A stretch of DNA of 64,000 nt, taken from NCBI GenBank assembly GCA_017499595.2, contig CM039005.1, positions 2,356,001 through 2,420,000 on the forward strand. Direction: 5' to 3'. Position numbers and translations under genes: made by a program. This DNA comes from Psilocybe cubensis (lineage: Eukaryota). A model generated the notes under the pieces. That model searched no databases. It was not told the origin of the DNA and saw only the letters and a list, made by a program, of their open reading frames with translations. Positions 25,392 to 61,300 of the stretch are shown here, piece after piece; the first letter of the stretch is position 1, and each line of letters begins with the position of its first letter.

Positions 25392-25917
25392 TGTGGATTG
25401 TGTTGGATGGGATGTAAGATGAGATGCTGGGCCAAAAGATTATCGCCCAGACCGAAATCTGCGCTGACCCTAACCCTAAGTTGACAAACACGGACTTGTC
25501 ATCATCGATGAAATCAACGCTATTTCAGGAGCGTCGCAGTCTATTCGTGCTCGCTCGCTCGGACATTTATGTATACGTGGAAAGCGGAATACGCAGAAAG
25601 AAAGGATATCCACATGTACAGCGACACTTGTGGGCAAGAAGCAGCCATTTCGGATCTACAGAGGGCGACTGCGCAGAGCGAAGACGAGGACAGACGCGTG
25701 CCCGGGGATAAGAATACAGAAGAGAGTACCTATGACCATATAATACATTTTTACAGGACATTTCCCGAGAAAAACAGAATAAAGCGAGGTCAGGAGGGGC
25801 GGCGGCGACATACTGGGGGACGCTTACGTGATTGGCACGTGCCCTTTTGTCAGTTTTGCAGTCTTTTCTTGGCGGGGCTAATACTACGACCACTGAACTC
25901 TGACCACAACGACCACG

Positions 25918-31924: not shown

Positions 31925-33679
31925 ATGCAAACTGTGGCGGATGCAGGTTCAGGGTCAAGAGCTTTGGCAACCTGTACTGTGAGAGGGTCAATAAGTATGT
32001 GATTATTGCTGTTTTCAACAAAACTACATCATGACGCCTTTGGAATCTGATTTACGTTATTTTTTTTTTACCGAATTTCAGACCATGATGAATATTTCCA
32101 TGGTTCGTGAACTATTTTATGTCGCTAATGACTCCAAAAAGTTGAGGCTTGGACATTGCATTACAACATTTCTCGTTCCTCGTGCTTTTTGTTGTTCTTT
32201 GACGTGGTTGTATCCTGCGTACAACTCCAACCCCCTCTGCCGGTTATACCCCTATCATATAACCCTCATCGCGACAAACCGTTAAACAATCACATTGAAC
32301 CATGAATACCGTCATTCCCACCTCCAGTCGCCCACATTGTCCGACCGGGAGAGACTCTGTCTTCCACTTTTCACGAAAGTCGCGTTGGTGGGAAAGGTGC
32401 AAACCAGGCTGTCGCTGTTGCGTTGGCCGCGGGCGGGGGTGAGTCATCGGGAAGTAACCCGGCCAAGGTGAAGTTTTATGGGACAATTGGGCACGATGGA
32501 GCTTGGATTAGGGAGAGAATGCGAGAGGTCGGTGTTGGTGTTGAGGGTATCTTGGTCTCGGAGGTGAGTTATCACGTTGGATATCCACTAGGGGGTTGGA
32601 TATTCGGATGGACAAGATGAAAAGAGAGAACTGGTATAGTCGGGCTGTGCAAAACACGAATATCTCATATGCGCAATGTTTGTAGACCGAGCTTACGGGG
32701 AGGGCAATTATTCAGGTAGACGAGAGAGGAGAGAATAGTATCAGTGAGTCGCTCCCTTTTATTGAATCTTGGGGTATTACCGGTCAGAGCTAATCATATC
32801 TTGCTTTCATTTGAATATAGTACTCTTCCCTGGCGCGAATTATAGCACCCTCCACGAAGACGCGTTCCGTGCCCAGTCTTTAACCACAGCAGGCACAGGC
32901 GGGTACTTCCCGCACAGCACACATCTTCTCTTGCAGAATGAAATTCCTTTGGAAGCAACCTTATCCGCCATACATAGTGCTAAAGTCTCGTCGCAACCTC
33001 CCAGACAAAGTCAACTTGGAGGCCAAAGGGATACTATTGTGATCATCAATCCCTCTCCACTCCCGGCGCGGGACACGATCTCCGCGTTCCCATGGGAGAA
33101 GGTCGACTGGCTGATTGTGAATGAGGATGAGGCAAGGGAGTTGTTTGAAGCGTTTGGCGGCGGCGTCGGCCGTGGAGGTGGAGATGGAAAGGTAGAAGCT
33201 GCGCGTGAGCTCGTGCATGCGCTCGGTGGGATGGAGGCGTTTAGGAATACAAGTGTGGTGTGTACACTCGGCGCAAAAGGGGTCCTGGCGCGTCAATGCG
33301 GAGTCGAGAAAGGGATGGAAATTGTGTATGTCCCTGCAGCGAAGCTACGAGGAGGTGTTCCAAAAGACACAACGGGCGCTGGCGATTGTTTTGCAGGATA
33401 CTTTGTGTGTGAGCTCATGGGGATGGCTGATGCTCATGATGATTCTGCCGATAAGGAGGGTACAGACTTCAAGTTGACCCAGATGGAATTGGAGAAGTTA
33501 TTGAAGGTCGCAGTGCAGGTATGTGCATCAGCTTTGAGGGTAATTTTTACCTCCACCTGAGCTGATTTGTTTACCCTTTGCACCATTAGGCTGCGGGTAT
33601 GTGCTGTGAGAAGAGCGGGACGATTGATAGTTATCCTACGAGAAGGGAAGTAGAAGAACGCATGAAGGACGGTGTGTAA
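31925..33679 (+). CDS. RBK1: Ribokinase (PfkB family)
   Basis: TVRGSIN, HIVRPGETLSS...GGKGANQAVAVALA, TGRAIIQVDERGENSI, LLLQNEI, INPSP, WLIVNEDEA, TLGAKG and DTTGAGDCFAG. Start codon uncertain. Confidence 0.9.
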
Positions 33680-35351
33680 GTTCGAACGCAGCCGGCCTCC
33701 GCAAACTCCTCCCGTTTAATCAGCTGAAAATATCCCAATCTTCCTTGCTTTCCGTCAAATACAAGCCCTTCCCAACGCCGGAGACTGCTCGTAATTCACC
33801 CGAACCAAGATAAATCTCATCATTGTAAGTTTAAATCGAATCATGCGCTTTCAATTTCAACCTCTGTCTGTGAGTCATCGAGTGGCACATCTTCGCTGAA
33901 CATCTCGTCAATGTATACTTTAAGGGAAGCACTATTCCAGTACTCTGCCACCGAAAACATCGTGTAAAATGGCATCCAGAACGCAAACCGTTCCACCTCA
34001 TAATACCAAAAGAAAACCCGAGTCATCGGTAGACAAAGGTGCTATGACCTTTGCAGTCAGCCACATTTCTAACGAGGTATTCTAAACCCACCTGTGTGTA
34101 ACCGATCATCGACATCGAGGCCCTATCATTCCTCCCGTGAGTACCATCTAACCCCTTTTCACTTTAATCGATGAGAAAGACAAAGGGAATGACTGTTTCT
34201 GACTTCTTTATGATTGATTATCGATCCGTAGAAGCCTCGAGAATCCGCATCCCTCTTACAAGTGTCCTGAGCGTGGTCTTTGTAAAATCCACAAAAGGAA
34301 AATAATTGAAGGACGGGGTAGCGGCCATATGGCGAGATGTCAAAAATAAATTCTGTGCCGTGTCTGCCGATTGTGTGTACTGACAGAACTTGGGAAGGAC
34401 GCCACTGCCTTTTGGTCTGCACCTCCACCGTATAAAGATTGGCTTGGGTGTTCAGTCCCCTCCACAAGCTCCCCCATCTCGTCTGCGGTGAAGACTGCAT
34501 CGAGTCTCTGCGGCCCTATATGGGCTTGAGACGCGTCTTCAATATTCACCACAACGACAGCGATATGCCATCGGGTGGCTGACCACTCGGTGGCGACGTC
34601 GCCAAAGGTATGCCACATTCTAACGCATATATACTTTTACTGACAATCTGCACCACAGGTCTATACGGGGACTCTATCACCACTATCGTCTGCGCGCCTA
34701 CCAAACGGGCGGTACAGCGGACGATAAAGGCCTCTGTCGCGCCTGTGGCGACATTGAGGCGCTGTCATGGGGCGTGCACACGCTGCACGCCCATTGGCAA
34801 AGCTCGTTCGATGGCATAAGCCGTAGACGAGGTCCTTGACCGGCGAGGCATTCTACGATGCCCGCCGGTCAGCCCCAAAAAATGTAAGTGGCTTTGTCTT
34901 CAGTCAGTTCATTCAAGCGTTTACTAATCTCTCTTCAACGCGTATTCAGGCTGCAGTTCCTTGATAAATGAGCATCTGATAGTTAAAGGTTCGTTAATGC
35001 ATACATCTAAGTTCTTCCTCACCTAACGCGTCGTTTGTTCTCAGATTCTAGCTAACGAATCATACCACTTACCAACGCGATCCTCATTCTACGGCCAAAC
35101 GCCGTCAAGGGGGTCGTTTCATCAATGGCGGGCGGGGCCGATTGCCCCAGCCTGCCCATAATATTTTAGGTGGGTAATGCTCTTGTTAGTTATGGTCCAG
35201 GACACTAACTGGTAATGCATTCAGACCACTATGCCTCGACGATAAGACTTTATAATAAGGTATGTTCTTTTTCTCGCACGTACGCTTTCATTCGGTCTGA
35301 CTTGATATGATTCAGTGTTATGTTATGGATTGCGGTCACCCACCACACAAC

Positions 35352-35710
35352 GCTACCCACATCCCATTTCCCCTACCATCCCCCGGCGAGGACCTGCAAG
35401 GTAGCGCAGGTCTGAGCTGGCAAGGGAGCTCGGATGGTAACCGCCAGCCTTTCGAGGCAGGCACTGTCGCTCGCTCAATTGAGTGGCGACAAAGGAGTCT
35501 CTCGCGAGACTCAACCTATCGCTTCCTGTTCATCGGGAAGCGATAACGACCTCTTCAGATTTCGCTCGAATGAGAGCATGGTTTGAAGAGGAATTTTTTT
35601 TCCAAAGAGGGGGCGGTGCGACGATTTGTTCGCACCGTCCTTGTGCAGCCTTGTCGTGGCCTCTTTGGCTTAGGTTGTACCCACGGGTATAACTGACCAA
35701 TAGCACATTA
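35352..35710 (+). ncRNA. Structured ~355-nt RNA module, copy L1
   Basis: GCTACCC...AATAGCACATTA unit with multiple hairpins and a 5' pseudoknot. One of six copies. Confidence 0.65.
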
Positions 35711-35980
35711 AAAATCAACCGGTATTCCCCACATTTTGTGAGTTTTTTCTATCTCAAATACATTGATTGTATCCAATCGCCCCAGCCAGTCTATCATAAA
35801 CCAGTAAGTAACAATCTTCTCGGTTATTGCCCAAAATACTAACTTCTTTTAGGTTCAGATTACTATGCTTCAACAATGAAATGCTATGCCAAAGTATGTT
35901 CTTGTTCAATTTGTATGGTTTCATTCCCAGCTGACTCAATGTGCTTTAGTTATGTTATGAGTTTCTTTTGACTCCACACT

Positions 35981-36336
35981 GCTACCCATGTCCCCATCCT
36001 CACTACCATCCCCCGGCGAGGACCTGCAGGGTAGCGCAGGTCTGAACCGGCAAGGGAGCTCGGATGGTAAAGGCCAGCCTCTCGAGGCAGGCACTGTCGC
36101 TCGCTCAATCGAGTGGCGACAAAGGAATCTCGCTTGAGATTCAATCTATCGCTTCCTGTTAATTGGGAAGCGATAACAACCTCTTCAGATTTCGCTCGAG
36201 AGCATGGTTTGAAGAGGGATTTTTTTTTCCGAAGAGGGGGTGGCACGACACTCGTTTGCGCCATCCTTGTGCAGCCTTGTCGTGGCCTCTTTGGCTTAGG
36301 TTGTGCCCATAGGTACAACTGACCAATAGCACATTA
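35981..36336 (+). ncRNA. Structured ~355-nt RNA module, copy L2
   Basis: Same unit. GAATCTC/GAGATTC replaces GAGTCTC/GAGACTC (compensatory change). Confidence 0.65.
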
Positions 36337-36834
36337 AAAATCCGCCAGTATCCGCCACACCTTGTGAGTTTTCTACCTTGAATCCATTTGTTGTCTACAT
36401 TAGTTCTGACCAGCATTTTCCTGTTGAAGATCCCTGTATTATGTGTCCTTCAAGAAGGTATGTTTGGGTCAACTGTGGGATTTTGTAACTTTTGCTAACT
36501 TGCTGGTTTTTAGAACATTTTTTTGTGTGATTTTGGTCAATATGCTCGTTGGACGGTCCAACTCCGTTCAACATCACTAAAATCCCTTTGCTGGCGGAGC
36601 CTCACTCGAGGTTCTCCTGCCAGTCGATCAGAATTAAGGTGAGCGTAATGATCGAATAATATCGTTTACAATGCTGACTCGGGATATACTCAGAAAATAT
36701 GCATCATGCTTCGATGATAATGTTATATACCAATGTACGCCCACATTCATCTTCATTATATTTATTTCCGAAACTGACTCGTAACTGATAGCTATATGAT
36801 ATGCATAACCATTGCAATGCTCAATGATCGAGCT

Positions 36835-37190
36835 GCTACCCACATCCCCTTCCCTCTACCATTCCCCAGCAAGGACTTGCCACGGGTAGCGTGAGTCCAA
36901 ACTGGCAAGGGAGCTCGGATGGTAACGGCCAGCCTTTCAAGGCAGGCACTGTCGTTCGCTCAATCGAGTGAAGACAAAGGAATCTCGCTTGAGATTCACC
37001 CTATCGCTTCCTGTTAATCGGGAAGCGATAACGACCTCTTCAGATTTCGCTCGAGAGCATGGTTTGAAGAGGGATTTTTTTTCCAAAGAGGGGGTGGCAG
37101 GACACTTGTTCGCGCCATCCCTGTGCAGCCTTGCCGTGGCCTCTTTGGCTGAGGTTGTACTCTTCGGTATGACTGACCAATAGCACATTA
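36835..37190 (+). ncRNA. Structured ~355-nt RNA module, copy L3
   Basis: Same unit with CCAG/CTGG and GGACT/AGTCC stem variants. Loop GGGTAGC is retained. Confidence 0.65.
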
Positions 37191-37921
37191 ATAAATAAGA
37201 ACCTCCTGTTTGCTTCCTCTTCAATTCACCGCTTACCTGACCACACTCCTTGTATGTTTGATTGATAGCTTGTTGTATCTTCTATACTTCAAGATCTGTG
37301 GTTGGGTTGTTTGTTGCATTTAAGCTTGTATCTCCGGTCAAGTCTGGCTCAGTGTAATACATGCGAGCAATCTGCCCCTTAATCGCTTTGATTTGAATGC
37401 AAATGCTACTTCGTTGAATTCGCGTGTATAATTAGACGCCCTTTGATGAATAACAGCGAGGTATGAAAAGACAAGGATTCCGAGACCATGTGCAAACTAT
37501 AGAAATAGAGCGTCTAAGAAGATACGTCAGATTTATTGTATGGTGTACGTCGGGAGAAGAAGTGTCCGTAGTTTCAATGTCTTCAGAAACTTCACAACAC
37601 CTGTCAAAGCAGCTGATCTCCCCTGCATTATACAATGTAGTCCCTGCTTCAGTAATGTCGGCGTTTAAATCTGTCAGTCTGTGGTATGTTTGGAAAGAGG
37701 GAATGGCCTTCTTTTTAGAAGTTACTAATTCATTAGTTAAATTGTTTAATAACAGACAAACCCTTGATTTCACGGACTTGGAAATTCGCCTAGACTAACA
37801 CCGTTATTTATACACAACATTCTAAGATTTCCCGTATAAATAAATGCTTTAGCTGAGTGTATAAATTCATAACCACCATCGAACATTTTGTCAGAACCCA
37901 AAGATCAACCACCTTTCCAAG

Positions 37922-38484
37922 ATGAAGGCCCTCTCCAGTTTCTGCCCTCTGTTTTTCGCGGTCGCCTCGTCAGTAATTCTTTCTCAGAGCTGTGATCCTA
38001 TTGTATCTCGTGTACGTTGTTTTCCCAGAGCTCCAAGTCAAATATACTTTTGTTCATTGTATTTATTATCCAACTTGTCGATGGTATCGTTTTTGGTCAC
38101 TGACAGTCCCCGGCCGACGAGGTATCCGTTATATTCTACAACGCGCCCAACCTCACCGGTTCCACCTTTGCTCCTGACAATATCATCCCGGGAGACTGTA
38201 CCACGTTACCCTGTCGCTGGGTTGGTCGAGCAGAAAGTCTGGTCATTGGCCCGGGATACACATGCACCTTTTTTGTGTTAGTCTTCACCTCTATCCTCTA
38301 TACGAGATCCATTTTTGAAATATCGATATTTACCGTGCCCGTGTTCTAACCGTACAGTATCGCTGGATGTGCGGGCTACGGAACCCAGTATAACGGGACA
38401 GTGTATCAGCTTCCCGCGAACAGCAATCCACCGCTGAACGACAACATTGAATCGTTTTCGTGCAATAAAGAAGTTAATATGTGA
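37922..38484 (+). CDS. Small secreted Cys-containing protein, beta/gamma-crystallin-like
   Basis: Signal-like MKALSSFCPLFFAVASS. Exons 37922-38011, 38107-38276 and 38358-38484 give VIFYNAPNLTG...CTTLP...AESLVIGPGYTCTFFVIAGCAG...LNDNIESFSC. Confidence 0.65.
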
Positions 38485-40901
38485 AGTGTGTGGGATGTGG
38501 AGAATCCTTGGTGTTTTATCGTCGGAGTAGGGAGTCGCTGATAGACTATGCTGTATGTCAGGAATGGCGTCTCCTCTCTTGTTGACAGTTGTCGTTAGCA
38601 TATGGATTTGAATGTGAAAGATGTATTGAGACTCGGGAGAATCCACTGAAAATCGGGAGAAGATGATGATCGCCCATCGGTCGCTGATGTTCATAAAGTG
38701 GCGGCGTATCTGTGTGCTAAATATGTTACCCACCCCGTTGCATTCGGCTATGTACACCTGAAGATTGTGGCTTTCTTTGCATGAAACCCATTCATCGCCA
38801 TGTATATTCCAACATTGACGATAGATACCTCGCATTGATTCGTCTGTCTTCACTTTTAGTACTCCATTGGTACACCTGATGGGCTCATTGGCGCCGGTTG
38901 AACGTCCGTACCTGCTGACGTCGTTGAAAATGGCTCTGTCAATCATCTGAATCATGTTGGGACGCCAGAATGACCATGATTTTTTCACATTTACAACCCA
39001 AATGCAACCCCCACTTTCCGATAGAAAGCTTCTGAATTTATATGGGTTTTAGGGTGTAAGAAAAATTGAATGAAGTCACTGTCACCGCGAAGGCTTGAGT
39101 AGGATAGTCTTGACGGGGTTTTGACGCCTAGGAGGGCATAAATGAATCATTGAAGTCGTGAGTTTGATTCGTTTGTAAGGGGAACCAAGGCTGCCCGCCC
39201 ACGCAGGCACGTCACCACACCTTTGAATACCTGGTGCTATCCTCGTCCCTTTTCTCCTAGATGGAGCGATGGGGGGTATAGATGTATGAGAGCTTATATG
39301 GCTGATTCCATTCAAGAACATAGACTGCAGGGTGGTCGACCTTCGATGTGGGCTCAGGGTGTTCATGGGTAAAAACATTCGCGCAGTTGAGCAGAACGCC
39401 CTCCCCAAATTGAAGTTATTTTCTGGTGGCATGCAATAGGCAATTAAAGTCGGTTTAATTTGTCCTATTACTTGAAGCTGAATTCAATGGAATAATTAGT
39501 GCTTAAACATATAAGAATCGGGCGCCCACAGGTAGGGAAGTTTCTGTCACCAGCCAAGTTTGAAAGTCAAAAATCGTCACTGTGTTTGTTTCGAGTTCGA
39601 TCGTTCCGATTCATTGATACACTCAGTCGAAACATGGTATGCAAAGGTCTTATCTTGAAATTGCCTACTCATCCTGTACTCAGACATGTCGGATGTGAGG
39701 CCCGAGGAGGATGTGAATGTGATCAACAGTTACGCATGGTATCGAGTCGTGAGCTAAATTTCTCTAGCCATGGAGCTGCAAATGGATCCGTGAGGCATTC
39801 CAGAGGGAGAGTTGATACTGTTAGGTGCAACGAGAGCTTGTACACACCACAAATGCCTATGTCTAATACGCTTCATGTCCTGCGCAATGCCGATCTCGCT
39901 ATTATGTCAGTAATTATGCTGACCCGGAGGTTCGGCTCGATGATGGCTGACCATGAAACCTGAAAGTACTAAAGCACAGCGAAGGATATCTATAAACTTC
40001 GAAGTAAATAAAAAATTGGCGCACTGGTTCACAGATTGGAGATGCTGGGAAATAGGTGAAGTGCGGGAACTGCTGACTGGTCCGTCGTGGGTGATTATTA
40101 AAATATAAAGCCGTGAATAGATCAACGGAGCCGCAACAAGCGTTCATCTCATTTGATAGACAATTTCTGACCTTCGTGACGTATATTAATCATCGAGCCA
40201 CGACATCAGAAAAGATATTCGATATGTTCGGGCCGTAGGCGGTTGGGTCTTTGTGATCTGCAGAAACGAGGCGAGTGTTATATAGTACGCTGATGAGTCC
40301 GGATCATGGTTGACCCCGTATAACACAAACACAAGCTCTTCACGACCTACAAGGGCCGTAAGGGGCCGTACCATCTATTGTCATGCGCATCGCGGAACTT
40401 GTGATTTAGGAGATCAGTATCCCCGAAATGGACTGTGTGGTTGCCTATGGCTGCAACTCTGATTATCGATGAAAATGGGGCGATAGAAGGTCTGAATGTA
40501 GAAAGGCTACTCGACATCTTCACCGAGTGGTTGTAGGATTGGTTTAGTTTAGCGTAAAGAGACCTCAGAAGACAAGACGGGTTCAAGGTAAGCGCGGGCC
40601 AAGAGATACAGCGCGAATGCTCCCGCATGAAGAAGTTGGGGTAAATGCGGGGAAGCACATAATCCAGCTCTCCTCTAGGCGCTGCCCAGATGACTCACCA
40701 GCGCTCTCCATTAAACTCGCGGACACCCATAAGTAAACGGCCGGAATATGGTACAAAGTTATCGCAGCTCGAGTCGATGATTGGCCTGGGCGGAGTTCGG
40801 ACTTATCCGGGGGGCATGTGATAAGCGGATTGCAGCTTCGGCCTACCGGTATAAGTTGAGCTTGCAGCGGACGACGACGCCAACGTTGACCTCTTTCCAC
40901 A

Positions 40902-42532
40902 ATGTCTGCAGGATTCAGAATAACGCCTGCGATATGGGACAAGATACACCATTTTGCTTCGTTTCCACAGACGGGAGGTTCGTCTCAAGCTTGGTCTTTG
41001 TCTGATGCCGTCTGACAGTGCGCTAGTCTCTCTCCAGCAGATGGTCTTGTTCGGTCAGAATCCCAGCCAGGGCACCCTGCTCAAGGCTAGCCAGTTCCTA
41101 GCAGGTGCGTCGGGCTTCTGAATATCGACAGCACATCTCACACCGCTTCACGTAGAGGAGCTACCCGTGCGCCTAGCCCACCGCGTCAAAGAACTCGACG
41201 AGCTACCGCACAACCTCAGCGCGATGCCGTCCATCAAGAAAGTCAAAAACTGGTACGCCCAGTCGTTCGAGGCGAGTCACATACCTTGTGCGACCAACCC
41301 TGTTCTGACTCCACCTCCCGCAGGAACTCATCACTTTCCCCCCCATCGTGCTTCCGCCGAGCATCCGCCAGGCGTTGATGATAACCAGACCGGACGAAAT
41401 CCATCTCCCTGAATCCAAACCCAATCTCTTCAACGACCCTTATTCAAATCCGTACCAGTCCCATGTGAACGGGAACGGCAACGGGAATGGCTTTAACAAG
41501 CTCAAACTCCGGGTACCCATGGAACGAAGGTCCGCACGATTGCCCTTTTTCTCACATCGAATGTCAACCAACCCATTGCATTTCCAGATATTACGCGAAT
41601 ACTAACAACATTACCTGGCCGCCCGAGGTCCAGGATTACAACAAGCGGTTTACCAAGCTGCTCGAGCACATCAAGAGCCGCCACGATCCAACAGTCACCA
41701 CCGTCGCCCAGGGTGTTTTGGAGTGGAAGCGGAGTCAGAATGCGCGCCATATTGGGCTCGACATGCAGGCCTGGCTCGATCGCTTCTACCTCTCGCGTAT
41801 AGGCATCCGATTTCTCATTGGACAGCGTGCGTCACTATTTCTGTCTTTGCGTCATTATGCTCATTAGTGTTAAAGATGTGGCGTTGAATACACAGCAGGC
41901 ACATGCGGACTATGTTGGAATCATCTGTACAAAAGCTGTTCGTCCTCTTTCCCATTCTGCGGAAATACGCACGCTAAGCACTTCCATAGAACGTGCACGA
42001 TATCGTGCAAGAAGCCATCGAAAACGCGCGTTTCGTGTGCGAAGAACACTACGCCATGTTCAAAGGGCCGCCTGTGCAGCTCATCTGTCCCAAAGACCTC
42101 ACTTTCCCTTACGTTCCCGGCCATCTCTCACACATCTGCTTCGAGCTGCTTAAAAACTCACTGCGTGCGGTTGTCGAACGATATGGCGTCGACCAGGAAG
42201 ACAACTTTCCCCCGATCAAGGTCGTCGTCGTTGAGGGTAAGGAGGACATCACGATCAAAATTTCCGATGAGGGAGGAGGCATCCCACGCAGTGCCATTCC
42301 TCTCATCTGGACGTACATGTATACCACTATGGATAGCCAGGGAATTGACGGCGATTTCCAGACAAACGATTTTAAGGCTCCGATGGCTGGGTTTGGGTAT
42401 GGGCTACCACTGTCAAGACTGTACGCGCGTTACTTTGGGGGCGATCTACGCCTGATATCCATGGACGGTTTTGGAACGGACGTGTATATCCATCTGAACA
42501 GGCTGTCGAGTAGTCGCGAACCCCTGCCATAG
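40902..42532 (+). CDS. Mitochondrial pyruvate dehydrogenase kinase family (PDK/BCKDK) protein
   Basis: FASFPQTG-VSLQQM..FG, EELPVRLAHRVKEL, LDRFYLSRIGIRFLIGQH, FELLKNSLRA, ISDEGGGIP and AGFGYGLPLSRLYARYFGGDL. Confidence 0.93.
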
Positions 42533-43664
42533 TTGTTTGCGCTGTTGGCTCTCTGTTAGTCTGTCGGTCGTGCTAAACGGATCGGAATGGAATGGTAGAG
42601 GAAGCTTTTTCGTGTATGATACCTCATTTTTTTTTATTTTGTTTTGCATTGGAGGGCTGGGTTTCAGTGGCAGGCAGGCGGATGCGGATGCATCTCGCCA
42701 CATAATGCCTGAGCTTTCTGTTTCACGGCCTCCGCTTCATTCCCCTCCCCCTTTTGCAGCCTTGCCCCCTCGTCGCGCCTTTCCTTCGTTCCGTCGTTCT
42801 ATCGACACATGTATGTTGTGTAATGTGTATTATTATTAATGGCGAATACCGTTGTATTATATACAAGTATATCAAGTAGAATGAATGAACAATCGTACAT
42901 TCGTAGAACTGGAATTAAATACTATTAAATTAGAGCGACCTTGCCTGGTATAGATGTATCTCATTCGTTCAATTTTTGGTTTGTACGAACCCACGCGCTT
43001 TTGAGTTGTAATTAATTTGGGGTGGAGGTAACCCAAACACGAAGAGGTCGTTTGTCGCTCTCCATGAAGCAATTGGGTTGAGCTACTTTACCGTGACTAG
43101 TTCACTTGCCAGCTCAAACTACATTACACTGAACGTTTGTGCTCACTGCTAGGGATGGTCAGATAGAGGGAATGATAGTAGCACTGCACTCGGAGGTTGT
43201 GTGCTGTCCCATAACAAGTCAGTTTCAAAAGGAATAAATCATTAAGGGAAAGCGACGTACGTTAGTATAACGCCTCATTGTCAAAGCGTGATCGCAGAGT
43301 TTTCTGTCTATACCGAAAATCAGTACTGTAATTGTAGGCAAAAGTATGACATGTTGCTCACATGGATCATACTCGACCGACTGGAGCGAGAGAGCTCCAC
43401 CAGCCAAATGGATGTGGATCACAAACTTCATGGATGGCGTAAGTTATTCACACAAGGAATCTAATAACCAAAGAGGAGTCAGATGCAAACTCGAATGCAA
43501 CAAAATGGCCAAAGCACAAACCTTGAAGCAGACAAGTTACAATAAGCTATCCATCAAGTACGCAAGAAAAGGGGTCGGATAAGCTGAGGATAGCGAATAG
43601 AAAATGATCGCAGAAACTCACCAAATGGATCGAAGAGAAAGCAACCAGGAGGATTTTTCATTAT

Positions 43665-44015
43665 TAATGTGCTATTGGTCAGTCATACCCAAGAGTACAA
43701 CCTCAGCCAAAGAGGCCACGGCAAGGCTGCACAAGGATGGCGCGAACGAGTGTCGTGCCACCCCCTCTTTGGAAAAAAAATCCCTCTTCAAACCATGCTC
43801 TCGAGCGAAATCTGATGAGGTCGTTATCGCTTCCCAATTAACAGGAAGCGATAGGGTGAATCTCAAGCGACATTCCTTTGTCGTCACTCGATTGAGCGAA
43901 CGACAGTGCCTGCCTTGAAAGGCTGGCCATTACCATCCGAGCTCCCTTGCCAGCTTGAACCTACGCTACCCTGCAGGTTCTCGCTGGGGGATGGTAGGGA
44001 AAGAGGATGGGTAGC
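43665..44015 (-). ncRNA. Structured ~355-nt RNA module, copy R3
   Basis: Reverse complement of the unit. AACCTGC/GTAGGTT, CCAG/CTGG and TGTCGT/ACGACA are compensatory variants. Confidence 0.65.
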
Positions 44016-44508
44016 AACTCGATCATTGAGTGTTGCAATGGTCAAGCATAACATATAGCTATCAATTACTAGTTAGTTTCGGAAACCAATGGAATGAAGA
44101 GAAATATATGCATACATAGTATATAACCATATCATCGAAGCATGTTGCATATGTCTGATTGTATCCCGAATCAGTATTATAGACGATATTATTCGATCGT
44201 TACACTCACCTAAATTCTGATCGACTGGCAGAAGGACCTCGAGTGAGGCTCCGCCAGCCAAAGGGTTTTAGTGTTGTTGAACGGAGTTGCGTTCAACGAG
44301 CATATTGACAAAAATCACACAAAGAAATGATCTAAAACCAGCAAGTCAGCAAAAGTTACAAAATCCCACAGATGACCCAAACATGCCTCCTTGAAGCACA
44401 CAAAATATAGTAATCTACAACAGAGAAAATGCTGGTCAAAACTAATGGAGAAAAAAATTGGATTCAAGATAGTAAACTCACAAGGTGTGGTGAATACCGC
44501 AAGATTTT

Positions 44509-44863
44509 TAATGTGCTATTGGTCAGTTATACCTATGGGTACAACCTAAGCCAAAGAGGCCACGACAAGGCTGCACAAGGATGGCGCGGACAAGTGTCGT
44601 GCCATCCCCTCTTTGGAAAAAAAATCCCTCTTCAAACCATGCTCTCGAGCGAAATCTGAAGAGGTCGTTATCGCTTCCTGTTAATCGGGAAACGATAGGT
44701 TGAGTCTCGCGAGAGGCTCCTTTGTCGCCCCTCGATTGAGCGAGCGACAGTGCCTGCCACGAAAGGCTGGCCTTTACCATCCGAGCTCCCTTGCCGGTTC
44801 AGACCTGCGCTACCCTGCAGGTCCTTCCCGGGGGATGGTAGGGGAAAAGGGGATGTGGGTAGC
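44509..44863 (-). ncRNA. Structured ~355-nt RNA module, copy R2
   Basis: Reverse complement of the unit. Confidence 0.65.
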
Positions 44864-45133
44864 TGTGTGGAGAATGAACTAAACTCATAGCATATCTAAA
44901 TCATATCGAGTCAGCTTGGAATGAACACATACAAATGAAAAAGAGCATACTTTGGCATAAGATTTCATCGTCGAAACATAGTAACCTGAACCTAAGACAC
45001 ATTAGTATCTGGGACGATAACCAACAAGATTGTTGCTCACTGGTTTGTAATAGACTGACTGGGGCGATTGGATACAATCAATGGACTTGAGATAGAAAAA
45101 ACTCACAAAGTGTGGGGAATACCGGTGAATTTT

Positions 45134-45492
45134 TAATGTGCTATTGGTCGGTTATGCCCGTGGGCACAACCTAAGCCAAAGAGGCCACGACAAGGCTGCA
45201 CAAGGATGGCGCGAACGAGTGTCATGCCATCCCCTCTTTGGAAAAAAAATCCCTCTTCAAACCATGCTCTCGTTTGAGCGAAATCTGAAGAGGTTGTTAT
45301 CGCTTCCCGATTAACAGGAAGCGATAGATTGAGTCTCGTGAGAGACTCCTTTGTCGCCACTCGATTGAGCGAGCGACAGTGCCTGCCTCGAAAGGCTGGC
45401 CTTTACCACCCGAGCTCCCTTGCCGGTTCAGACCTGCACTACCCTGCAGGTCCTCGCCGGGGGATGGTAGGAATAACGGGGATGTGGGTAGC
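45134..45492 (-). ncRNA. Structured ~355-nt RNA module, copy R1
   Basis: Reverse complement of the unit. Terminal hairpin GTTGTGCCC/GGGCATAAC compared with GTTGTACCC/GGGTATAAC in L1. Confidence 0.65.
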
Positions 45493-47830
45493 GGCCCAAT
45501 TATTGAGCGTTGCAATAGTTATGCATAACATATAGCTAATAATCACCAGTCAGTGTCGGCAACAAATATAATGAAGATGAATGTGGGCATACAAGAGTAT
45601 ATAATCTTATCATCGAAGCATGTTGCATATTTCTGGTTGTATGGAAATGGGATGTGGGTAGCGTTGTGGTGGGTGACCGAAATTTATAACATAACTCTAA
45701 ATCATATCAGGTCAGACCGAATGAAAGCGTACGTGCGAGAAAAAGAACATACCTTATTTTAAAGTCTTATCGTCGAGGCATAGTGGTCTGAATGCATCAC
45801 CAGTTAGTGTCCTGGACGATAACTAACAAGAGCATTACTCACCTGAATTGTCATGCGCGGGCTGGGGTAATTGGGCCCGCCCGCCGTTGATGAAACGATC
45901 CCCTTGACGGCGTTTGGCCGTAGAATGAGGATCGCGTTGGTAAGTGATGTGATTCGTTAGCTAGAATTTGAGAAAAAACAACGCGTTAGACGAGAACGAA
46001 CGTACATGTATGCACTAACGAACCTTTAACTATCAGATGTGCATTTATCAAGGAACCGCAGCCTGAATACGCGTTGAAGAGAGATTAGTAAACGCTCGAA
46101 TGAACTGACTGACGACAAAGCCACTCACATTTTCGGGGGCTGACCGGCGGGCATCGTAGAACGCCTCGCCGGTCATGGACCTCGTCGACGGCTTATGCCA
46201 TCGAACGAGCTTTGCCAATGGGGGTGCAGCGTGTGCACGCCCCATGACAGCGCCTCAATGTCGCCACAGGCACGACAGAGGCCTTTATCGTCCGCTGTGC
46301 CGCCCGTTTAGCTGGCGCGCGGACGATAGTGGTGATGGAGTCCCCGTATAGACCTGTGGTGCAGATTGTCAGTAAAAGTATATATGCGTTAGAATGTGGC
46401 ATACCTTTGGCGACGTCGCCACCGAGTGGTCAGCCACCCAGTGGCATATCGCTGTCGTTGTGGTGAATATTGAAGACGCGTCTCAAGCCCATATAGGGCT
46501 GCAGAGACTCGATGCAGTCTTCACCGCAGACGAGATGGGGGAGCTTGTGGAGGGGAGTGCACACCCAAGCCAATCTTTATACGGTGGAGGTGCAGGTCAA
46601 AAGGCAGTGGCGTCCTTCCCAAGTTCTGTCAGTACACACAATCGGCAGACACGGCACAGAATTTATTTTTGACATCTCACCATATGGCCGCTACCCCGTC
46701 CTTCACTTATTTTCCTTTTCTGGATTTTCTACACTGACCAGCGACCACGTTCGAGGCACTCGTCAGAGGGCTGTGGATTCCCGAGGCTTCTGCGGATCGA
46801 TAATCAATCAGAAAGAAGTCAGAAACATCCATTCCCTTTGTCTTTCTCATCGATTAAAGTGAAAAGGGGTTAGATGGTGCTCACGGGAGGTTGATAGGGT
46901 CTCGATGTCGATGCTCGGCGGCACACAAAGGCGGATTTAGAATGCCTTTCCAAAAAAAAAAAATGATGATTTCTCTGAGGGTCTTAGCACCGTTGTGGAA
47001 GTAGTGCTTCCCTTTAAGTATACATTGACGAGGTGTTTGGATTTCTTGAAAAAGAGTGACCACTCCAAGGGTCGTAGCCCCTCCGTACCAACGACCTGGG
47101 TGCTCCATTGATTTTTTTACCCTGAACAATTTACAATCAAGACACGATTCCATACGACGTCCGGCGGTCGGCGACAGTGGGAACGGAATCAGGATGACGA
47201 CCTATAAACTTGTAGATCAACCAAAATCAAAATGACCAACAAAAAAGGTATTATAAAATATACAAAAAAGCAACAACAATGACCGCCAAAAGACAAGACA
47301 CATAAACGCAGATAGGTATTAAGATATTAACTAGTAGGAAAAAAGAAAATCAAACAAACAAACAAGGAGGCAGGGAAATGGGGAAGGAGGTTACGATGAT
47401 GATGGGAACAGGCAGAATGGCAGAAATTGGAACTAGAAGTGAGTTGGAGTCATGTGAAAAGAGAAAAAGAAAAGTACGTGGTATGCAAGCAAGCAAGCGT
47501 GAAAAGTCAGTGATTAGAATGAAGCAGGATATGGGATGGGAATGGGAGGGGAGAATACAGGAACGGGTGCACAAACAAGAATCAGTATGACAGAAGAAGG
47601 AAAAAAATTGAAAATGAAAACCACCAATGAAAAATTCAAAAAAAAGAGAAAACGCAACCCGAAAGGGTAGGTATTAATCGATACGCGGTATAATTCCTTT
47701 TCAACACCCCAGCACTTACGCCTTGCCTCACCTAGACGTCGGCCCCCTTTTACGAATCCGCCTTCTCCATTTGTGATTTGTTTTGCCCTTCTTCACCTTC
47801 AATGGGCTAACGCCACATACATACGCATCA

Positions 47831-52939: not shown

Positions 52940-55430
52940 TTGCTCACCCACGTTTTGCTTCACTGATGGCCAATAGCTTGTGGAGGCTATGCTCCTCAAC
53001 CTCCCTAGGGACTTTGCCCCTATACCCCATTAGCACTTTGTGCCTCTTTATTGATACACTATTTAAATGTATTTATTTTCAACTCCTTTGTATTTTCTAT
53101 CATATACAACCTGTTAGGTAGAGGAAAAAATTCAGAACTAAATAGACCTACTCACCACTAAAAGAGATTTTAATCACTTACTCAAATAATCTACTTATGG
53201 ATTTTATAGATATTTTTACCAAATCTATAAATCTATTACCCGTTGAAATAGTTGGAAATCATGTGTAGCATATTGGATAATCCATCAAGTTAAATCTTTC
53301 AGGAGGTATTCTGAGGCTTTTACGGACTTATATTTAATTATCATTCTTCTACTTGATTTGTGAGCTGTTGCAAAGTGCGGCAATACGAGGCTTTTACTCA
53401 CTAGGTAGTGTAATTGTTAATCTAGAATCTTCTGATTTGTATATTGCATAAATCATTCTAGTGTCTTTACATCTAGCTAGCCATCTTAAATTTGAATTGA
53501 TTGATATTATTCTTTCTTCTATGCATTTTGAACCAGTTGTAATGCCATTATGAAACCATACTCTGCCAGACCTATCAATGTATCGAGATATAAAATGATT
53601 TCCATTACCATATATAACTCCAGACAATGTAAGAACAGTTGTAATATTACCAATTTTAAACTTTAAATTTAGATCCAACTGAATATAAGGGTCTTCAATA
53701 CTAAAAATTAGCAATGGTAGTACTTTGCTTAATAATAATGTTTGATTTAACCTGGTTGATATATTATTTACATAACATTCTGGACATTTTTTTCTATATT
53801 GAGAATTTATTCTCAAATTTTGCAAATCAGATAATGTTACAGAGTGAGGATAATTTGCACTTGTTATTAATGAAGTAATTAGATTCAAATTTAATTCTGG
53901 ATTTCTTGCTTGATAATTACATATGTTACAACTTAAGTATATTTCACCAAATGATTCATTTCCTGTTAAAGAATCAATAATATTATTAATAAATGTATTA
54001 TTATTTCTAGTTGGGAAAGAGGATCTATCACTTATAGCAAGAAATTGTCTTACATTATTTCTAGCCTCTTCAATTGAAATAGTATATTCAACTACTTGTT
54101 TAAATTCAACACATAACAAGGGCATAGCATCACTGTATAAATTAAGTATTTCATGCCAATAGGTAATATTTTCATTCTAAATATTGAAAATAATTGTAAA
54201 AATAGAATCATAAGAACAACTCCAGTTTTCATCATCCCATATCAGACTTATAGGCTCTTTTTCTAGTATAGAATTATTATTTATAGCTTTTTGTTTTTTA
54301 ACAGTGTGTATTTCTTTAATATTACCATTATACGTTGAAATATTATCATCTTTAATATCTGCATATTTATTTTTTGTATGTTTGATTTTTTTTATTTATA
54401 TTTATAACTTTTGAAACTGAAGTAAATTTATTTAAATTACTATTCCACATTGCATTATCCAATGGTGTTTTACTTTTTTCTTCACCAGGTATCTATTTTA
54501 AAACAGGATGTCATTCAATTTTTTCACATTTATCACCTATCCACAGTTAATAAGATCTTATTAATATGTTTCTAAAATCACCAACAATACTTGAAGGTAG
54601 CTTGTTTTCAAATTTTAATCTAGTAATTGTATTTAATATCTCAAATTCTCTAAATTCTTGTCTTAAATAACCGCTAATGCCTCTAGTAATTTTATCTGTA
54701 TTAAAACCTTGTACTATAACTGTATTTTTAGCACTAGAACTTCTAGACAAGCATATATAATAAAAATAATATGTTTTGCAATGACTTAAATCTATAATAT
54801 TAATAAGACATGTTTTACCTTGACTGGTATAATCAGTCATAGCAAAATTAGGTAAAATAACAACCTGCTGCCTCTGAATTTTAATTTCACTATCATCTGG
54901 AAGTTTGCAAATAATTGTTGTTTTACTTCTTGGTATAGGCACAATATTAGTAGGTAAATATGGAATATTAACTTCTTTTGGTGGATTTGTTAATTTAACA
55001 AATAATGTATTTAAACATTGCTTGCTATCGGGACCAATATAGCTATCCCATCCACAAATAGTTTCTTCTTGTCCCTTAGTTATACATAATTCAGTAGCAT
55101 TATTATATCTTAGCATTACAGGCATACTGATATATAATGTTAGTTTTCCAGCTATGTATATGATTATTTGTACTAGGTACTGAATTCCATAGTGCTTTTT
55201 TTTCTATAATATGTAGTATATATGCTTTATTTTTCTTTTTAGGTTTTCTTCCATGTTCCTTTTTGCCTTCATTATCTTCTTCAGCATCTATAGTGTCTAT
55301 AGAATAGAAGTTTTGTAATTCTTGACCAGTATCTTTTGCAAATTGACTACATCCTAACTCATTAATTCAATCCTTTTGTACATTCCAAGCAGTAATTATT
55401 GAAATATATTTAAAATAATAGTTGCCTAAC
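52940..55430 (-). mobile_element. Degenerate Helitron-like element: Pif1 helicase C-terminus plus a downstream cysteine-protease-like region
   Basis: MPVMLRYNNATELCITKGQE...RQQVVILPNFAMTDYTSQGKT...YICLSRS are Pif1-type helicase motifs. Downstream is WDDENWSCSYDS...CxxC...CxxC...GVIYGNGNHFISRYID...WFHNG. Internal stops, very AT-rich, boundaries approximate. Confidence 0.7.
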
Positions 55431-57192: not shown

Positions 57193-58299
57193 CATGGACA
57201 TGGACCCCTCCCAATTGCCTCCCACCACTCCTTCTGTGGAAGAGCTCATGCATCAGGTCTAGCTCCTTACCCAAGAGTTGAATTTTCTTAGACAGCAGCA
57301 GCAGTCATCATCTACTCTACCACACCCTCAGCAACCAGTCAGTCAGTCACCATCATCACCACCACCACCACCTGCTGCTCTAGATATTCACTCTTTCCCT
57401 ACCCCCCTGTTGCCCCTTCCTGTTCACACTCTGTCATTAAAGTCTCACCTCCAGATCCATTTGATGGTTCTATGGAGAAGGCAGAAAACTTCCTTAGTCA
57501 GCTCAAATTATATTTCTATGGGAAAGGGATTACGGATGACTTTCAGAAAGTTATTTGTGCTCTATCTCATATGAAAGGAGGTACTGCTGGGAAGTGGGCA
57601 TATGAGAAGACTAAAGTAATAGACAATGCTCAGTCCCAAGAAGGTTTTTGGGCTGACTTTGTTTATGAATTTAGGGAAGTGTTTGCAGATCCAGACCCCT
57701 CCAACACAGCTAAGCATAAAATGCACATGCTCAAGCAAGGCAGACAGACTGCTGATGAGTATGTTGCTAGCTTTAGGGCTCTGATCTCAGATACTGGGTA
57801 TAATGATGCTGCTTTGGTAGACCAATTCAAGGCTGGGCTCAATGAAAATCTCAGGAATGCAGTCTACTATGTTCCTGACATGCCCAAAACCTTGGATGGA
57901 TAGATTAAATGGAGTACTAGGCTAGATAGGCAGTGGAGACAGAGTGAGGCCTTTACCAAGTCTCTTTCCTCCTCCTCATCTTCTCCCTTTCTTAAAGCCC
58001 CAACTCCCAAGGCTGTTCCTAAGCCTACTCCAAATCCTCCAGTCTTTTCCAACGGCAGCTCAAGGACCTTTGGTGCTCAGGCAAAGCAATCAGATGTAGT
58101 TCCCATGGAGGTTGACTCTGGATGGAAGTCAGTTAGGCCAATTGTTTGCTTCAAGTGCAGAAAGCCTGGTCATAAGGCTGTAAACTGCAGGTCATCAGTT
58201 AACATCAATGCTATGACCCATGAAGAACTGGCTGACTACTTTGGGAAATTAATCTTGGAAGGCAAGGAGCAGAAAGATGAGGAAAAGAAAATTTTTTAG
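57193..58299 (+). pseudogene. gag: Retrotransposon gag with premature stops
   Basis: PDPFDGS, Retrotrans_gag-like core (LKQGRQTADEY...F..GLN) and zinc knuckle CFKCRKPGHKAVNC. TAG stops near 57260 and at 57901. Confidence 0.85.
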
Positions 58300-58307
58300 A
58301 AGCACCA

Positions 58308-61300
58308 TTGGTGAAAGACATGTCCCAATGGAATAGATTTAATGTACTAGAAAATGAAATTGACAGACTTGATCCTCAGTCTTCAGATTCTGGTGCAGAA
58401 ATCATGTCTTCTTCTTCCTCTCTTTCTACCTTCCCTGAAAAAATCTACATCCTCAACCATAATCCTAAAACCTCTACCCATTTGTCTGTCATCTTAAAGA
58501 CAATGGACACAGAGAAAAGGTTATCTGTTGATGCTTTGCTTGATTCTGGAGCTACTGGCCTCTTTCTGCATTCTGATTTTGTGAAGTATCATAATCTCAA
58601 CACAAGGAAACTTCCTAGAGCCATTCCAGTCTATAATGTTGATGGTACTCTCAACAAGAGTGGCTCTATCCATGAGGAAGTAGACTTAATTTTGGTACAC
58701 AAGAACCATACAAAAAGGGCCACCTTTGCTGTTTGTGACTTGGGAGACAAATCTGCTATCATTGGACATACTTGGCTTTGGCACCATAATCCAGATGTTG
58801 ATTGGAAAACAGGGGATGTTCAGTTTATTAGATGTCCCTCTGACTGCCAAATGGAAGCCAAAAGAGCCAGAAGAAAGAGGCAGAGAATAGCTGCAGTCAA
58901 AAGGAGGAAACTCCCTCAATTTGATGAAGAAGAAGAAGATTCTATTGAAGATTCTTCTGATTCTGAGATTGAGCCTGAGGACAGAATTTTCATCTCATAC
59001 CTTCATCCTCAGAAGCAGTCTATTAATGCTACTTCTACTATGTCTCAAAGATTAGCAGAAGAGTCTCATCAGCAAGCTGATTCTCCTAAGAAAACCTTTG
59101 AAGAAACTGTCCCTAAGCACTATCACCAGTTTAAAGGTGTTTTTTCAAAGGAATCTTTTGATAGGCTACCAGACAGGAAGCCTTGGGATTATGCTATTGA
59201 GCTGAAACCTGGTTCTGAACCTTATAGATCCAAGATTTATCCTCTCTCTCCCAATGAACAAAAGGAACTTGATGCCTTTTTAAAGGAAAATCTGAAGTCT
59301 GGCAGGATTAGACCCTCCAAGTCACCTATGGCCTCCTCTGTATTCTTTGTCAAGAAGAAGGATGGATTTCTTAGGCTTGTCCAGGACTATAAAAAACTGA
59401 ATGAAATGACCATCAAGAACTCCTACCCCCTTCCATTGATTTCTGATATTATCACCAAACTCAGCAAAGCCAAATACTTCACCAAACTTGATGTTAGGTG
59501 GGGATTTAACAATGTCAGAATCAAAAAGGGAGATGAATGGAAAGCAGCCTTTAGAACCAATAGAGGGCTGTTTGAACCATTGGTCATGTTCTTTGGTTTA
59601 ACCAATAGTCCTGCTACCTTCCAAACTATGATGAATGATATCTTTATTGAGCTCATTGATGGAAATGTTGTCATTGTCTACATGGATGACATTTTAATTT
59701 TCACTGAGACTCTTGATCATCATAGAGAGGTAGTCAAGCAAGTTCTGCAAATCCTAGAACAAAACAAACTCTACCTTAAAGCAGAGAAATGTGAATTTGA
59801 AAAGGAAAAGATTGAATATCTTGGACTAATCATTTCACAAGGCAGGATTGAGATGGATCCTGTCAAGGTAGAGGGAGTTTCTAAATGGCCTGAACCTGAA
59901 AATGTCAAGGATGTCCAATCATTCTTGGGATTTGTTAATTTTTATAGAAGGTTCATAGAGGATTTTGCAGACATTGCTAAGCCCCTTCATGAATTGACAA
60001 AGAAAGGAACAGTCTGGAGATGGAGTCTTAGACAGCAGGAAGCCTTTGACCAGTTAAAGAAGAAAGTCACTTCTTCACCTGTCTTGATTTTCCCTGATGA
60101 TAACAAGCCATATAAAGTTGAAGCAGACAGTTCAGATTATGCTACTGGAGCTGTTTTATCTCAGGAAGGATCAGATGGGAAATGGCATCCTGTAACCTTT
60201 ATGTCTAAGAGTCTATCTGAAGTAGAAAGAAATTATGAGATCCATGACAAAGAGATGCTGGCTATTATCAGAGCACTAGATGAATGGAGACATTATCTTG
60301 AAGGAACCCAACATTCCTTTGAGATTTGGACAGACCACAAAAACTTAGAGTACTTTATGGTTGCCCAAAAGCTCAGCAGAAGGCAAGCCAGATGGTCACT
60401 CTTCCTGTCCAGATTTGATTTTACTCTTCATCATAGGCCTGGTAAAAGATCTCTTAAGCCAGATGCTTTGTCTAGGAGACCAGATCATAAAAAGGGAGAG
60501 AATGATAACCAAAATGTAGTTCTCCTCAAACCTTCCTACTTTAAAATCCAGGCTCTCAAGCAGGGTCATGCTACCATTACTGGTGCAGAAAATGATCTTC
60601 TTAAGAAGATTAGAGAAGCTAAGGAGATGGATGAAAAGGTGGTCAAGGCAGTTCAGGAGCTCAAGAAATCTTCTACCAAGAAGATTGAAGGACAGGAATG
60701 GTCAGAAGAACAAGGCCTTATTCTCTACAGGGGGAAGGTGTATGTTCCCAAGGACAAAGATCTTAGAAGAAAAATTGTGGAACTGCACCATAATGCCTTC
60801 ATTGCTGGACATCCAGGGAAATGGAAGACAATTGAGCTAGTCTCTAGGAATTATTGGTGGCTAGGAATGTCACATTTTATTGCAGCCTATACCAGAGGTT
60901 GTGATAGATGCAACAGAACCAAAACCTTTCCAGCCAAACCTCTTGGCCTTTTAATTCCTACTGAGATTCCCTCTGATGTCTGGCAATGCATCTCTGTGGA
61001 CTTTATTATGGGGTTACCAGAATGTCAAGGGTATAATGCCATTATGGTGGTTGTGGATAGACTTAGTAAAATGATCCACATTATCCCTACTACAGATGAA
61101 GTCACTTCTGAAGGGACAGCCAGACTATACAGAGATTATGTCTGGAAACACCATGGCTTACCCATTAAAATTCTGTGTGATAGAGGTCCACAGTTTGTCT
61201 CAAGGTTTATGAAAGAACTCAACTCAATACTTGGTATCCAGACAGCCTCATCTACAGCCTACCATCCCCAAACTGATGGTCAGACTGAAAGAGTTAACCA

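Follow-up and report, generated by a model that had tools for sequence, protein, structure and literature searches.

Two inverted, spliced and apparently non-coding genes of Psilocybe cubensis carry six copies of a structured RNA module

A 64,000-nucleotide (nt) stretch of the Psilocybe cubensis genome (contig CM039005.1 of assembly GCA_017499595.2, positions 2,356,001 to 2,420,000 of the forward strand; hereafter the window, whose own numbering is used throughout) contains two convergent, intron-rich regions, and the question which they raise is what kind of gene has so many introns and no recognisable protein. A repeat search of the window identifies the two regions as inverted paralogs, as had been claimed in an initial annotation of this DNA, with a left gene at 33907-37335 on the plus strand and a right gene whose paralogous part lies at 47029-43478 on the minus strand. 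The longest inverted pair has arms of 1064 nt at 34284-35347 and 45665-46728 which are 94% complementary, and together with 24 further pairs (25 in total) it tiles 34131-37201 against 43654-46890. The two 3.4-kb arms are 88-95% complementary and are separated by a 6-kb spacer, and direct repeat families are present as well, with three copies on each side. The answer favoured here, with a probability of roughly 0.55, is a paralogous pair of Psilocybe-lineage genes for spliced long non-coding RNAs (lncRNAs) which are transcribed by RNA polymerase II (Pol II) and act as RNA.

The outermost sequence common to both copies is a 28-nt TATA-like block, GTCAATGTATACTTNAAGGGAAGCACTA, which has exactly two matches in the window, at 33907-33934 (+) and 47002-47029 (-), where 0 would be expected; a shared upstream block of this kind had been proposed and is confirmed by this count. 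The sequences further upstream are unrelated between the copies and, because the block is the first shared sequence, the duplication starts there. The block at the left outer edge (33907-33934, +) is a candidate core promoter. Inside the genes lies a module of ~360 nt which is found three times in each, and a BLAST comparison of the repeat unit with the whole window returns exactly six modules, at ~35362-35720 (L1), ~35992-36346 (L2) and ~36835-37200 (L3) on the plus strand and at ~45493-45122 (R1), ~44863-44497 (R2) and ~44017-43655 (R3) on the minus strand.

Both loci give rise to spliced transcripts. The evidence comes from the contigs of run X1, which is taken to be RNA because its contigs lack the introns of the two genes and also those of a gene in the spacer (~40.9-42.5 kb, +) that is presumably pyruvate dehydrogenase kinase (PDK), a name carried over from the initial annotation. 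The contigs contain eight GT-AG junctions in the two genes, to which a loose end adds a ninth, and all nine coincide with introns of 54-75 nt predicted by a regular-expression scan (GT...CTRAY...AG) that also returned spurious candidates inside the modules. In the left gene a single 343-nt contig with zero mismatches connects 36275-36363, 36430-36455/7, 36512/4-36636/8, 36692/4-36734 and 36792-36851, which yields the joints 36363>36430, 36455>36512, 36636>36692 and 36734>36792, all of them GT..AG. In the right gene a 540-nt contig connects 43720-43622, 43546-43522, 43460-43362, 43307-43261 and 43203-42935, and its joints (43203>43261, 43307>43362, 43460>43522 and 43546>43622) all read CT..AC, which is GT-AG on the minus strand. 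The ninth junction is provided by an 11-nt loose end at 45843 which equals 45780-45790 and fits a junction 45790>45843 across the predicted intron 45788-45842. The joints confirm micro-exons of 25-47 nt (about 26-28, 41-43, 25 and 47 nt), and the chain of short GT-AG introns and micro-exons that had been read from the sequence is thereby found in RNA, on the proposed strand. GT-AG introns of 50-60 nt are general among the genes of the window. Four of the 13 introns in the left-gene model and four of the 14 listed for the right gene are verified, with one more in the latter by the loose end, and the rest are predicted. A GTGAGT donor had been described after L1, L2, R1 and R2; the one after L2 (36364) is verified in RNA and the other three are known from sequence alone. 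Contig depth, being a single figure per contig, was not used for expression comparison.

The X1 contigs reach into L2 and R3 at their 3' ends and into the L3 exon at its 5' end. Since they join these edges to spliced neighbours, three of the six modules have an exonic edge. They end at or near the break points of the DNA assemblies of three other strains (X3-X5), for example at 43720 in both, and as DNA contigs break there too it is the six-copy repeat that breaks the assembly.

The search for a conserved coding open reading frame (ORF) gave no credible candidate, as Pfam, protein searches and codon changes are all negative, and the earlier claim that the genes lack an ORF holds on the spliced models. 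Stop-to-stop ORFs inside the paralogs do not exceed 127 amino acids (aa), and the one of 127 aa is antisense. The spliced models, that of the right gene leaving out the R2-R3 spacer introns, contain 12 ATG ORFs of >=25 aa per gene, which are short (longest 73 aa on the left and 85 aa on the right) and not shared between the copies. The sole frame that crosses a module is at full length in two of the six copies; in L2 it is stopped by a TGA which results from a helix-preserving switch of GAGUCUC/GAGACUC to GAAUCUC/GAGAUUC. A precursor of repeat peptides or of ribosomally synthesised and post-translationally modified peptides was rejected on account of this 2/6 count. A 98-aa antisense ORF is common to both copies and shows 7 nt differences which change 5 codons, all non-synonymously; with no Pfam match in addition, the idea that exon 2 holds the remains of a gene coding in antisense was likewise rejected. 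None of eight ORFs from the locus exceeds the Pfam cut-off, the best being TctA at 12.4 bits against 28.9, and the 127-aa antisense translation of L2, a query chosen so that false gene calls on similar modules would also be detected, had no match in a word-indexed search of 5.8 billion predicted proteins. An exhaustive HMMER comparison of an 81-aa sense ORF with 1.84 billion representatives gave a single match, which is discounted because it is caused by a motif of 12 residues that recurs in a repeat protein of 1704 aa. The 3' exons of the right gene, and of the right gene only, contain a 53-aa ORF (43433 to ~43150, -) with a hydrophobic start which spans the introns 43308-43361 and 43204-43260 and has no homologue in the word-indexed protein search. 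With canonical splicing and no recognisable ORF, the locus has the defining properties of spliced lncRNA genes.

What the six modules have in place of a reading frame is a common fold. RNAalifold applied to the six ~360-nt modules gives a consensus of 110 pairs in 13 helices which is closed by an invariant GCUA/UAGC stem (6/6 copies) and in which 98.6% of 660 cells are paired, a figure that is inflated as the structure was derived from the same six sequences. Pairing falls to 35-42%, and double changes to 0-1, when the partners are slid by 1-3 columns. Compensatory double changes are present in 8 pairs against 3.0+/-1.2 in shuffles, of which 0/500 reach 8, and columns are variable at 41/220 of the paired and 51/137 of the unpaired positions. 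The fold is strand-specific, because its 77 G-U cells leave the opposite strand paired in only 87.3% of cells, and the fold z-score of L1 is -8.6 when the transcribed strand is folded and -6.2 for the opposite one. When individual segments are compared with 60 dinucleotide shuffles each, the modules score -9.4 (L1), -6.1 (L2) and -7.8 (L3), and the very stable exon 34659-34883 scores -9.7 in sense and -3.8 in antisense. The verified 125-nt exon 36514-36638 follows with -5.4, then exon 35045-35169 (-3.8), exon 2 (-2.3), the right terminal exon (-0.8) and exon 1 (-0.5), and three control segments give -0.1, -1.4 and +1.2.

Selection on the fold was addressed by a less biased relocation test, in which one copy is folded alone and the substitutions of its counterpart are compared with the same substitutions placed at random sites. 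The substitutions from L1 to R1 break 2 pairs against a null of 10.3 (0/2000 simulations) and those from L2 to R2 break 6 against 13.0 (P 0.003), while R3 to L3 is marginal with 6 against 9.8 (P 0.04); the antisense controls are not significant. For exon 34659-34883 a two-sequence consensus fold is fully structure-preserving, and no claim of selection is made for it since its relocation test is not significant. Within the modules the loops vary, and the invariant parts are the unpaired junction strands, namely CAAGGGAGCUC with its self-complementary GAGCUC, A-U8-CCAAAGAGG and an ACAUUAA tail. Separately, CCAAAGAGG and CCUCUUUGG (35302-35371; alignment columns 302-310 and 360-368) could form a perfect 9-bp helix in competition with helices 5 and 6, and a single change in L2 (A to G) retains it as a G-U pair; modelled in this way, the pairing may represent an alternative conformer or a pseudoknot.

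The history of the locus can be read from the repeats. The repeat unit consists of a module exon of ~415-440 nt, a GUGAGU intron, one or two micro-exons and a further intron, and this unit is tandemly triplicated, which bears out the proposal of tandem exon duplication. The stretch before L1 (35138-35273) is a diverged copy, 66% similar, of the L1-L2 spacer. L3 and R3 are clear counterparts with 93.2% identity, and L1, L2, R1 and R2 show mosaic identities of 89.6-93.0% with no clean one-to-one pairs; this mosaic, along with a chimeric exon before R1, indicates exchange after the duplication. The further proposal that the gene was then duplicated as a whole does not hold, as paralogy ends at ~37335 and 43478, inside the verified intron 43461-43521 of the right gene. 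In the left copy a 39-nt deletion has taken away the GTGAGT donor that the right copy uses, the next donor carries a mutation (ATCTGT against GTTTGT) and the four extra 3' exons of the right gene are missing. The lost donors and the end of paralogy within an intron suggest that the left gene is a 3'-truncated inverted duplicate, probably with the right gene as its parent, and that it presumably ends soon after L3, where an AATAAA follows the module. The right gene had been given a limit at 43478 and in fact continues through four more exons to at least 42935. A transposon was considered as the source of the repeats and rejected, given no further copies in the window and no terminal repeats seen.

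Several points weigh against the reading of the locus as a pair of functional lncRNA genes. The six modules are young paralogs which are 87-93% identical, and the covariation rests on six copies within one species and could stem in part from gene conversion or from a small number of shared events. The relocation test is not significant from L3 to R3 (8 pairs broken against a null of 8.5, P 0.51), in the 5' exons (P 0.12-0.37) or in the 125-nt exon (P 0.30 and 0.79). One of the two genes appears as a 3'-truncated duplicate, and the divergence of the exons (44/780, 5.6%) is similar to that of the introns (18/284, 6.3%), with no overall excess constraint on exons. The RNA contigs reach the module edges only and leave the central ~200 nt, the transcription start site and the left 3' end uncovered, although stretches without RNA cover (the left 5' region, the module cores, 37136-40871 and the R2-R3 spacer) are evidence of nothing. 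The mechanism favoured below is, moreover, reached by inference only. The initial annotation had argued that conservation of the splice sites suggests function, an argument that is weak at an overall divergence of 5.8%: since introns and exons have diverged equally, splice-site retention says little, and one predicted acceptor (35044) reads CAA in the right copy. The case for function rests instead on changes within the modules that leave their structure intact. As a target of selection, the fold has good support in modules 1 and 2 and weak support in module 3; for the other exons, extremely stable as they are, the relocation test gives none. The description as a Pol II spliced lncRNA stands with regard to splicing on the proposed strand and the lack of a credible ORF; the polymerase itself is inferred, because the introns are spliceosomal and a U8 run lies inside every module.

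No known RNA family accounts for the two genes. None of 4227 Rfam families matches at E<=5 in 33800-37400 or 42800-47100, and only a tRNA reaches its gathering score in the whole window, on which grounds small nucleolar RNA (snoRNA), small nuclear RNA (snRNA), signal recognition particle, RNase P/MRP and ribozyme readings were rejected. Covariance models of ENE and U3 have no match in either gene (E<=5), and the word CUGAUGAG occurs in just one of the six copies, namely R3, and there in antisense. Exact-pattern scans of metagenome contigs returned 0 loci, and full-text literature searches brought up no description of an RNA of this kind from Psilocybe or other mushrooms, though transcript tables from P. 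cubensis studies may include the locus. To our knowledge no mushroom lncRNA, and few among fungi, come with evidence for a selected fold.

Three known systems share traits with the locus. NORAD, hsr-omega of Drosophila with its 280-nt repeats, the RRD exons of FIRRE and the A-repeats of Xist are likewise lncRNAs without an ORF which are built from tandem units of a few hundred nt, and in FIRRE the repeats are placed in separate exons as the modules are here. Unlike these, the present genes are fungal and unrelated in sequence, their unit is a large closed domain of 13 helices with covariation and between the units lie very short introns and micro-exons. The presence of the repeats in the mature RNA, which characterises NORAD and hsr-omega, is seen for the edges of L2, L3 and R3 in the spliced contigs, the cores being uncovered. 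Host genes of snoRNAs (of the UHG/GAS5 type and fungal intron-encoded clusters) resemble the locus in being multi-exonic, spliced and devoid of an ORF, with very short exons. Their functional RNAs are intronic, whereas here the structured RNA is exonic and there is no C/D or H/ACA match; a snoRNA host gene was rejected, as the introns of 48-95 nt are too short to host snoRNAs and have 0 Rfam matches. Fungal telomerase RNA (TER1 of S. pombe and its counterparts in filamentous ascomycetes, with spliceosomal 3' end formation) is a large and structured Pol II product as well; it has a U-rich tract, and in it a 5' splice site follows closely on a folded domain. It differs in that the present RNAs have no template, complete both splicing steps and carry six domains in two genes. 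Telomerase RNA was rejected, given that CTAACCCTAAC (<=1 mismatch) has 3 matches in the window, all outside the genes, the telomere repeat of the organism being assumed.

How else might the locus be explained? The main rival, unlikely but with several observations on its side, treats the spliced RNA as a precursor from which each module is released as a stable ~360-nt ribonucleoprotein (RNP) RNA, in the manner of polycistronic small-RNA clusters, while the micro-exons are discarded. The modules are head-to-tail repeats each closed by the invariant terminal stem, in both genes modules 1 and 2 are followed at ~33 nt by a GUGAGU donor, and small RNAs in high demand typically have a multi-copy layout of this kind. 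A weak hint, from a single study, is that the RNA contig into L3 stops at 36851 where DNA contigs reach 36956. It is difficult to reconcile this with the joining of three modules' edges to spliced neighbours, which indicates that unprocessed spliced RNA accumulates, and with the lack of a snoRNA, snRNA or other Rfam signature. No RNA ends are listed, and contigs cannot show ends. The earlier label of host gene would mean that the modules are excised from the transcript, of which the data give no sign. A doubtful alternative is that of a young duplication which is transcribed and spliced without a function of its own, its hairpin-rich modules being inherited and too recent for decay. This would suit the equal divergence of introns and exons, the truncation of the left copy with its decayed donors, a relocation test that is not significant outside modules 1 and 2 and the lack of a homologue in protein-translation and metagenome scans (fungal genomes being outside those scans). 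It leaves unexplained why there are eight compensatory pairs in place of the 3.0 expected, why modules 1 and 2 have far fewer broken pairs than random relocation would produce and why the G-U bias is strand-specific, and the extreme fold z-scores need an origin under selection in any case.

Two other explanations are very improbable. The transcripts could be mRNAs in which the modules form long structured elements of the untranslated regions (UTRs) of a small-protein gene, such as that for the 53-aa product, whose frame is open across two verified introns and begins with a hydrophobic stretch. This ORF is without a homologue and is wholly missing from the left copy, it is preceded in the model by a leader of >2.8 kb with 11 other ATG ORFs of >=25 aa, and an open frame as long as this is nothing unusual by chance (~0.08 per frame by our own arithmetic); the restriction of the ORF to the right gene, its lack of a homologue and the breakage of the module ORFs in 4/6 copies speak against a protein-coding gene with a structured UTR. 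The convergent arrangement of two 3.4-kb arms with 88-95% complementarity could, alternatively, constitute an inverted-repeat locus in which read-through over the 6-kb spacer gives a long hairpin RNA that feeds RNA interference. The two spliced RNAs are alike and not complementary, each being made from its own sense strand, and the structure signal is intramolecular and strand-specific, which argues against such a hairpin; no RNA contig is listed across 37136-40871, which is evidence neither way.

If the two genes act through lncRNAs, the mature RNAs would be ~2.5 kb (left) and at least 3.2 kb (right) in length, and each can be modelled as a string of independently folded, exon-sized domains that works as RNA. 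The most likely mechanism, itself put forward only tentatively, is that of a multivalent platform or decoy in which three identical sites per transcript would be shown to a protein partner or to other modules. The sites on display would be CAAGGGAGCUC with its GAGCUC, A-U8-CCAAAGAGG and the ACAUUAA tail, all unpaired in every module, and a platform is favoured because the module loops vary while the unpaired junction strands stay invariant. In principle such a platform would resemble the animal lncRNAs made of repeat units. A more speculative and rather doubtful reading is that the modules represent a new class of exon-encoded RNP RNA with protein loaded on the U8 tract and the junction strands. 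In this class the spliced RNA might serve as a precursor that sets the domains free, with ends defined by the splice sites nearby, or the domains might link via the unpaired GAGCUC palindrome and nucleate an RNA-protein body. If true, such a body would be an independently arisen fungal counterpart of omega-speckle or NORAD-type assemblies.

The intron-exon map of the left gene begins with a 5' part (33935-35315, +) which is known from the intron scan and from its 94% identity to 46728-45665, no RNA contig being listed there. Its predicted exons are ~33935-34136, 34232-34607, 34659-34883, 34950-34988, 35045-35169 and 35225-35259, and its predicted introns 34137-34231, 34608-34658, 34884-34949, 34989-35044 (doubtful), 35170-35224 and 35260-35315, the last of which had been placed before L1 from sequence. 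The L1 exon (35316-35737, core ~35362-35720) is supported by alignment, fold and covariation and has predicted borders. The L1-L2 spacer (35738-35949) would contain introns 35738-35785 and 35804-35852 (or a single one, 35738-35852) and then 35894-35949, which leaves predicted micro-exons at 35786-35803 and 35853-35893. The L2 exon (35950-36363) is covered by RNA over 36275-36363, which is joined to 36430, and in the L2-L3 spacer (36364-36791) the four joints of the 343-nt contig verify the introns 36364-36429, 36458-36513, 36639-36693 and 36735-36791 and hence the exons 36430-36457, 36514-36638 (125 nt) and 36694-36734. The L3 exon (36792-37230), with RNA over 36792-36851 and an AATAAA after the module at ~37192, is probably the last exon of the gene. 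Upstream, a joint of the 'opposite strands' type (33400>34169) is present in DNA contigs of X3 and X4, as is a loose end of 255 nt at 34243, and X5 lacks cover over 33400-33866; the 5' end of the left gene consequently differs in structure between strains.

In the right gene the 5' part (45697-47029, -) has predicted introns at 46790-46884, 46354-46404, 46063-46128, 45788-45842 and 45697-45752. It is followed by the chimeric exon 45593-45696, in which an L1-type start is joined to an L3-type spacer (repeat families D6, D8, D9 and I15), and by a predicted intron 45536-45592 and the R1 exon 45107-45535, these being placed by repeat families, BLAST and the intron scan. The R2 exon (44482-44895) is defined by alignment and sequence, with a GTGAGT donor at 44481. 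The right counterpart (44381-44386, -) of the verified left donor GTATGT (36458) reads GCATGT, which would make it either a GC-AG intron or a dead donor replaced by GTGTGC at 44401. The R3 exon (43622-44058) has RNA over 43622-43720, joined to 43546, and its upstream border follows from homology with the left intron 36735-36791, which is verified. The 3' part found in the right gene only (42935-43621) comprises the verified introns 43547-43621, 43461-43521, 43308-43361 and 43204-43260 and the exons 43522-43546, 43362-43460, 43261-43307 and 43203 down to at least 42935, as given by the four joints of the 540-nt contig.

The gene pair is flanked on one side by an ORF at 32766-33560 (+), which we take to be ribokinase-like after its name in the initial annotation, and on the other by a gene whose RNA contig begins at 47091. 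Between the arms the PDK gene is accompanied by a small secreted-protein-like gene (37921-38480, +) directly downstream of the left lncRNA gene, whose product has several cysteines and begins with what resembles a signal peptide; Pfam gives no match for the 81-aa exon of this small gene, and no X1 RNA contig is listed there. In the same spacer X5 lacks 27 nt at 39328 relative to the window, a strain-level indel. Elsewhere in the window, a 380-aa DUF6535 ORF (17569-18711) is 100% identical to a P. cubensis UniRef protein, with next-best matches in Psilocybe, Galerina, Gymnopilus and Pholiota. Two telomere-type repeats, CTGACCCTAACCCTAAG (25464-25480, +), are located ~70 nt upstream of where a minus-strand gene with a putatively eIF2-alpha-like N-terminus begins; they may be a telo-box-like promoter element, and the chance of their 12-mer in 64 kb is ~0.008 by our own arithmetic. 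The stretches 53000-55300 and 57300-61760 comprise an AT-rich block (25-29% GC) with degenerate-looking ORFs and, beside it, a 1158-aa pol ORF (58281-61757), named by eye as Ty3/Gypsy-type, which points to a transposon-rich flank.

With a ~360-nt domain in six copies, a strand-specific structure signal and evidence of splicing, the locus offers a tractable entry to the roles of structured modular lncRNAs in Agaricomycetes. It also shows a route by which a gene can grow, through tandem duplication of exon-intron units followed by segmental duplication. For the annotation of basidiomycete genomes it serves as a warning that intron-rich loci without an ORF can be real genes.

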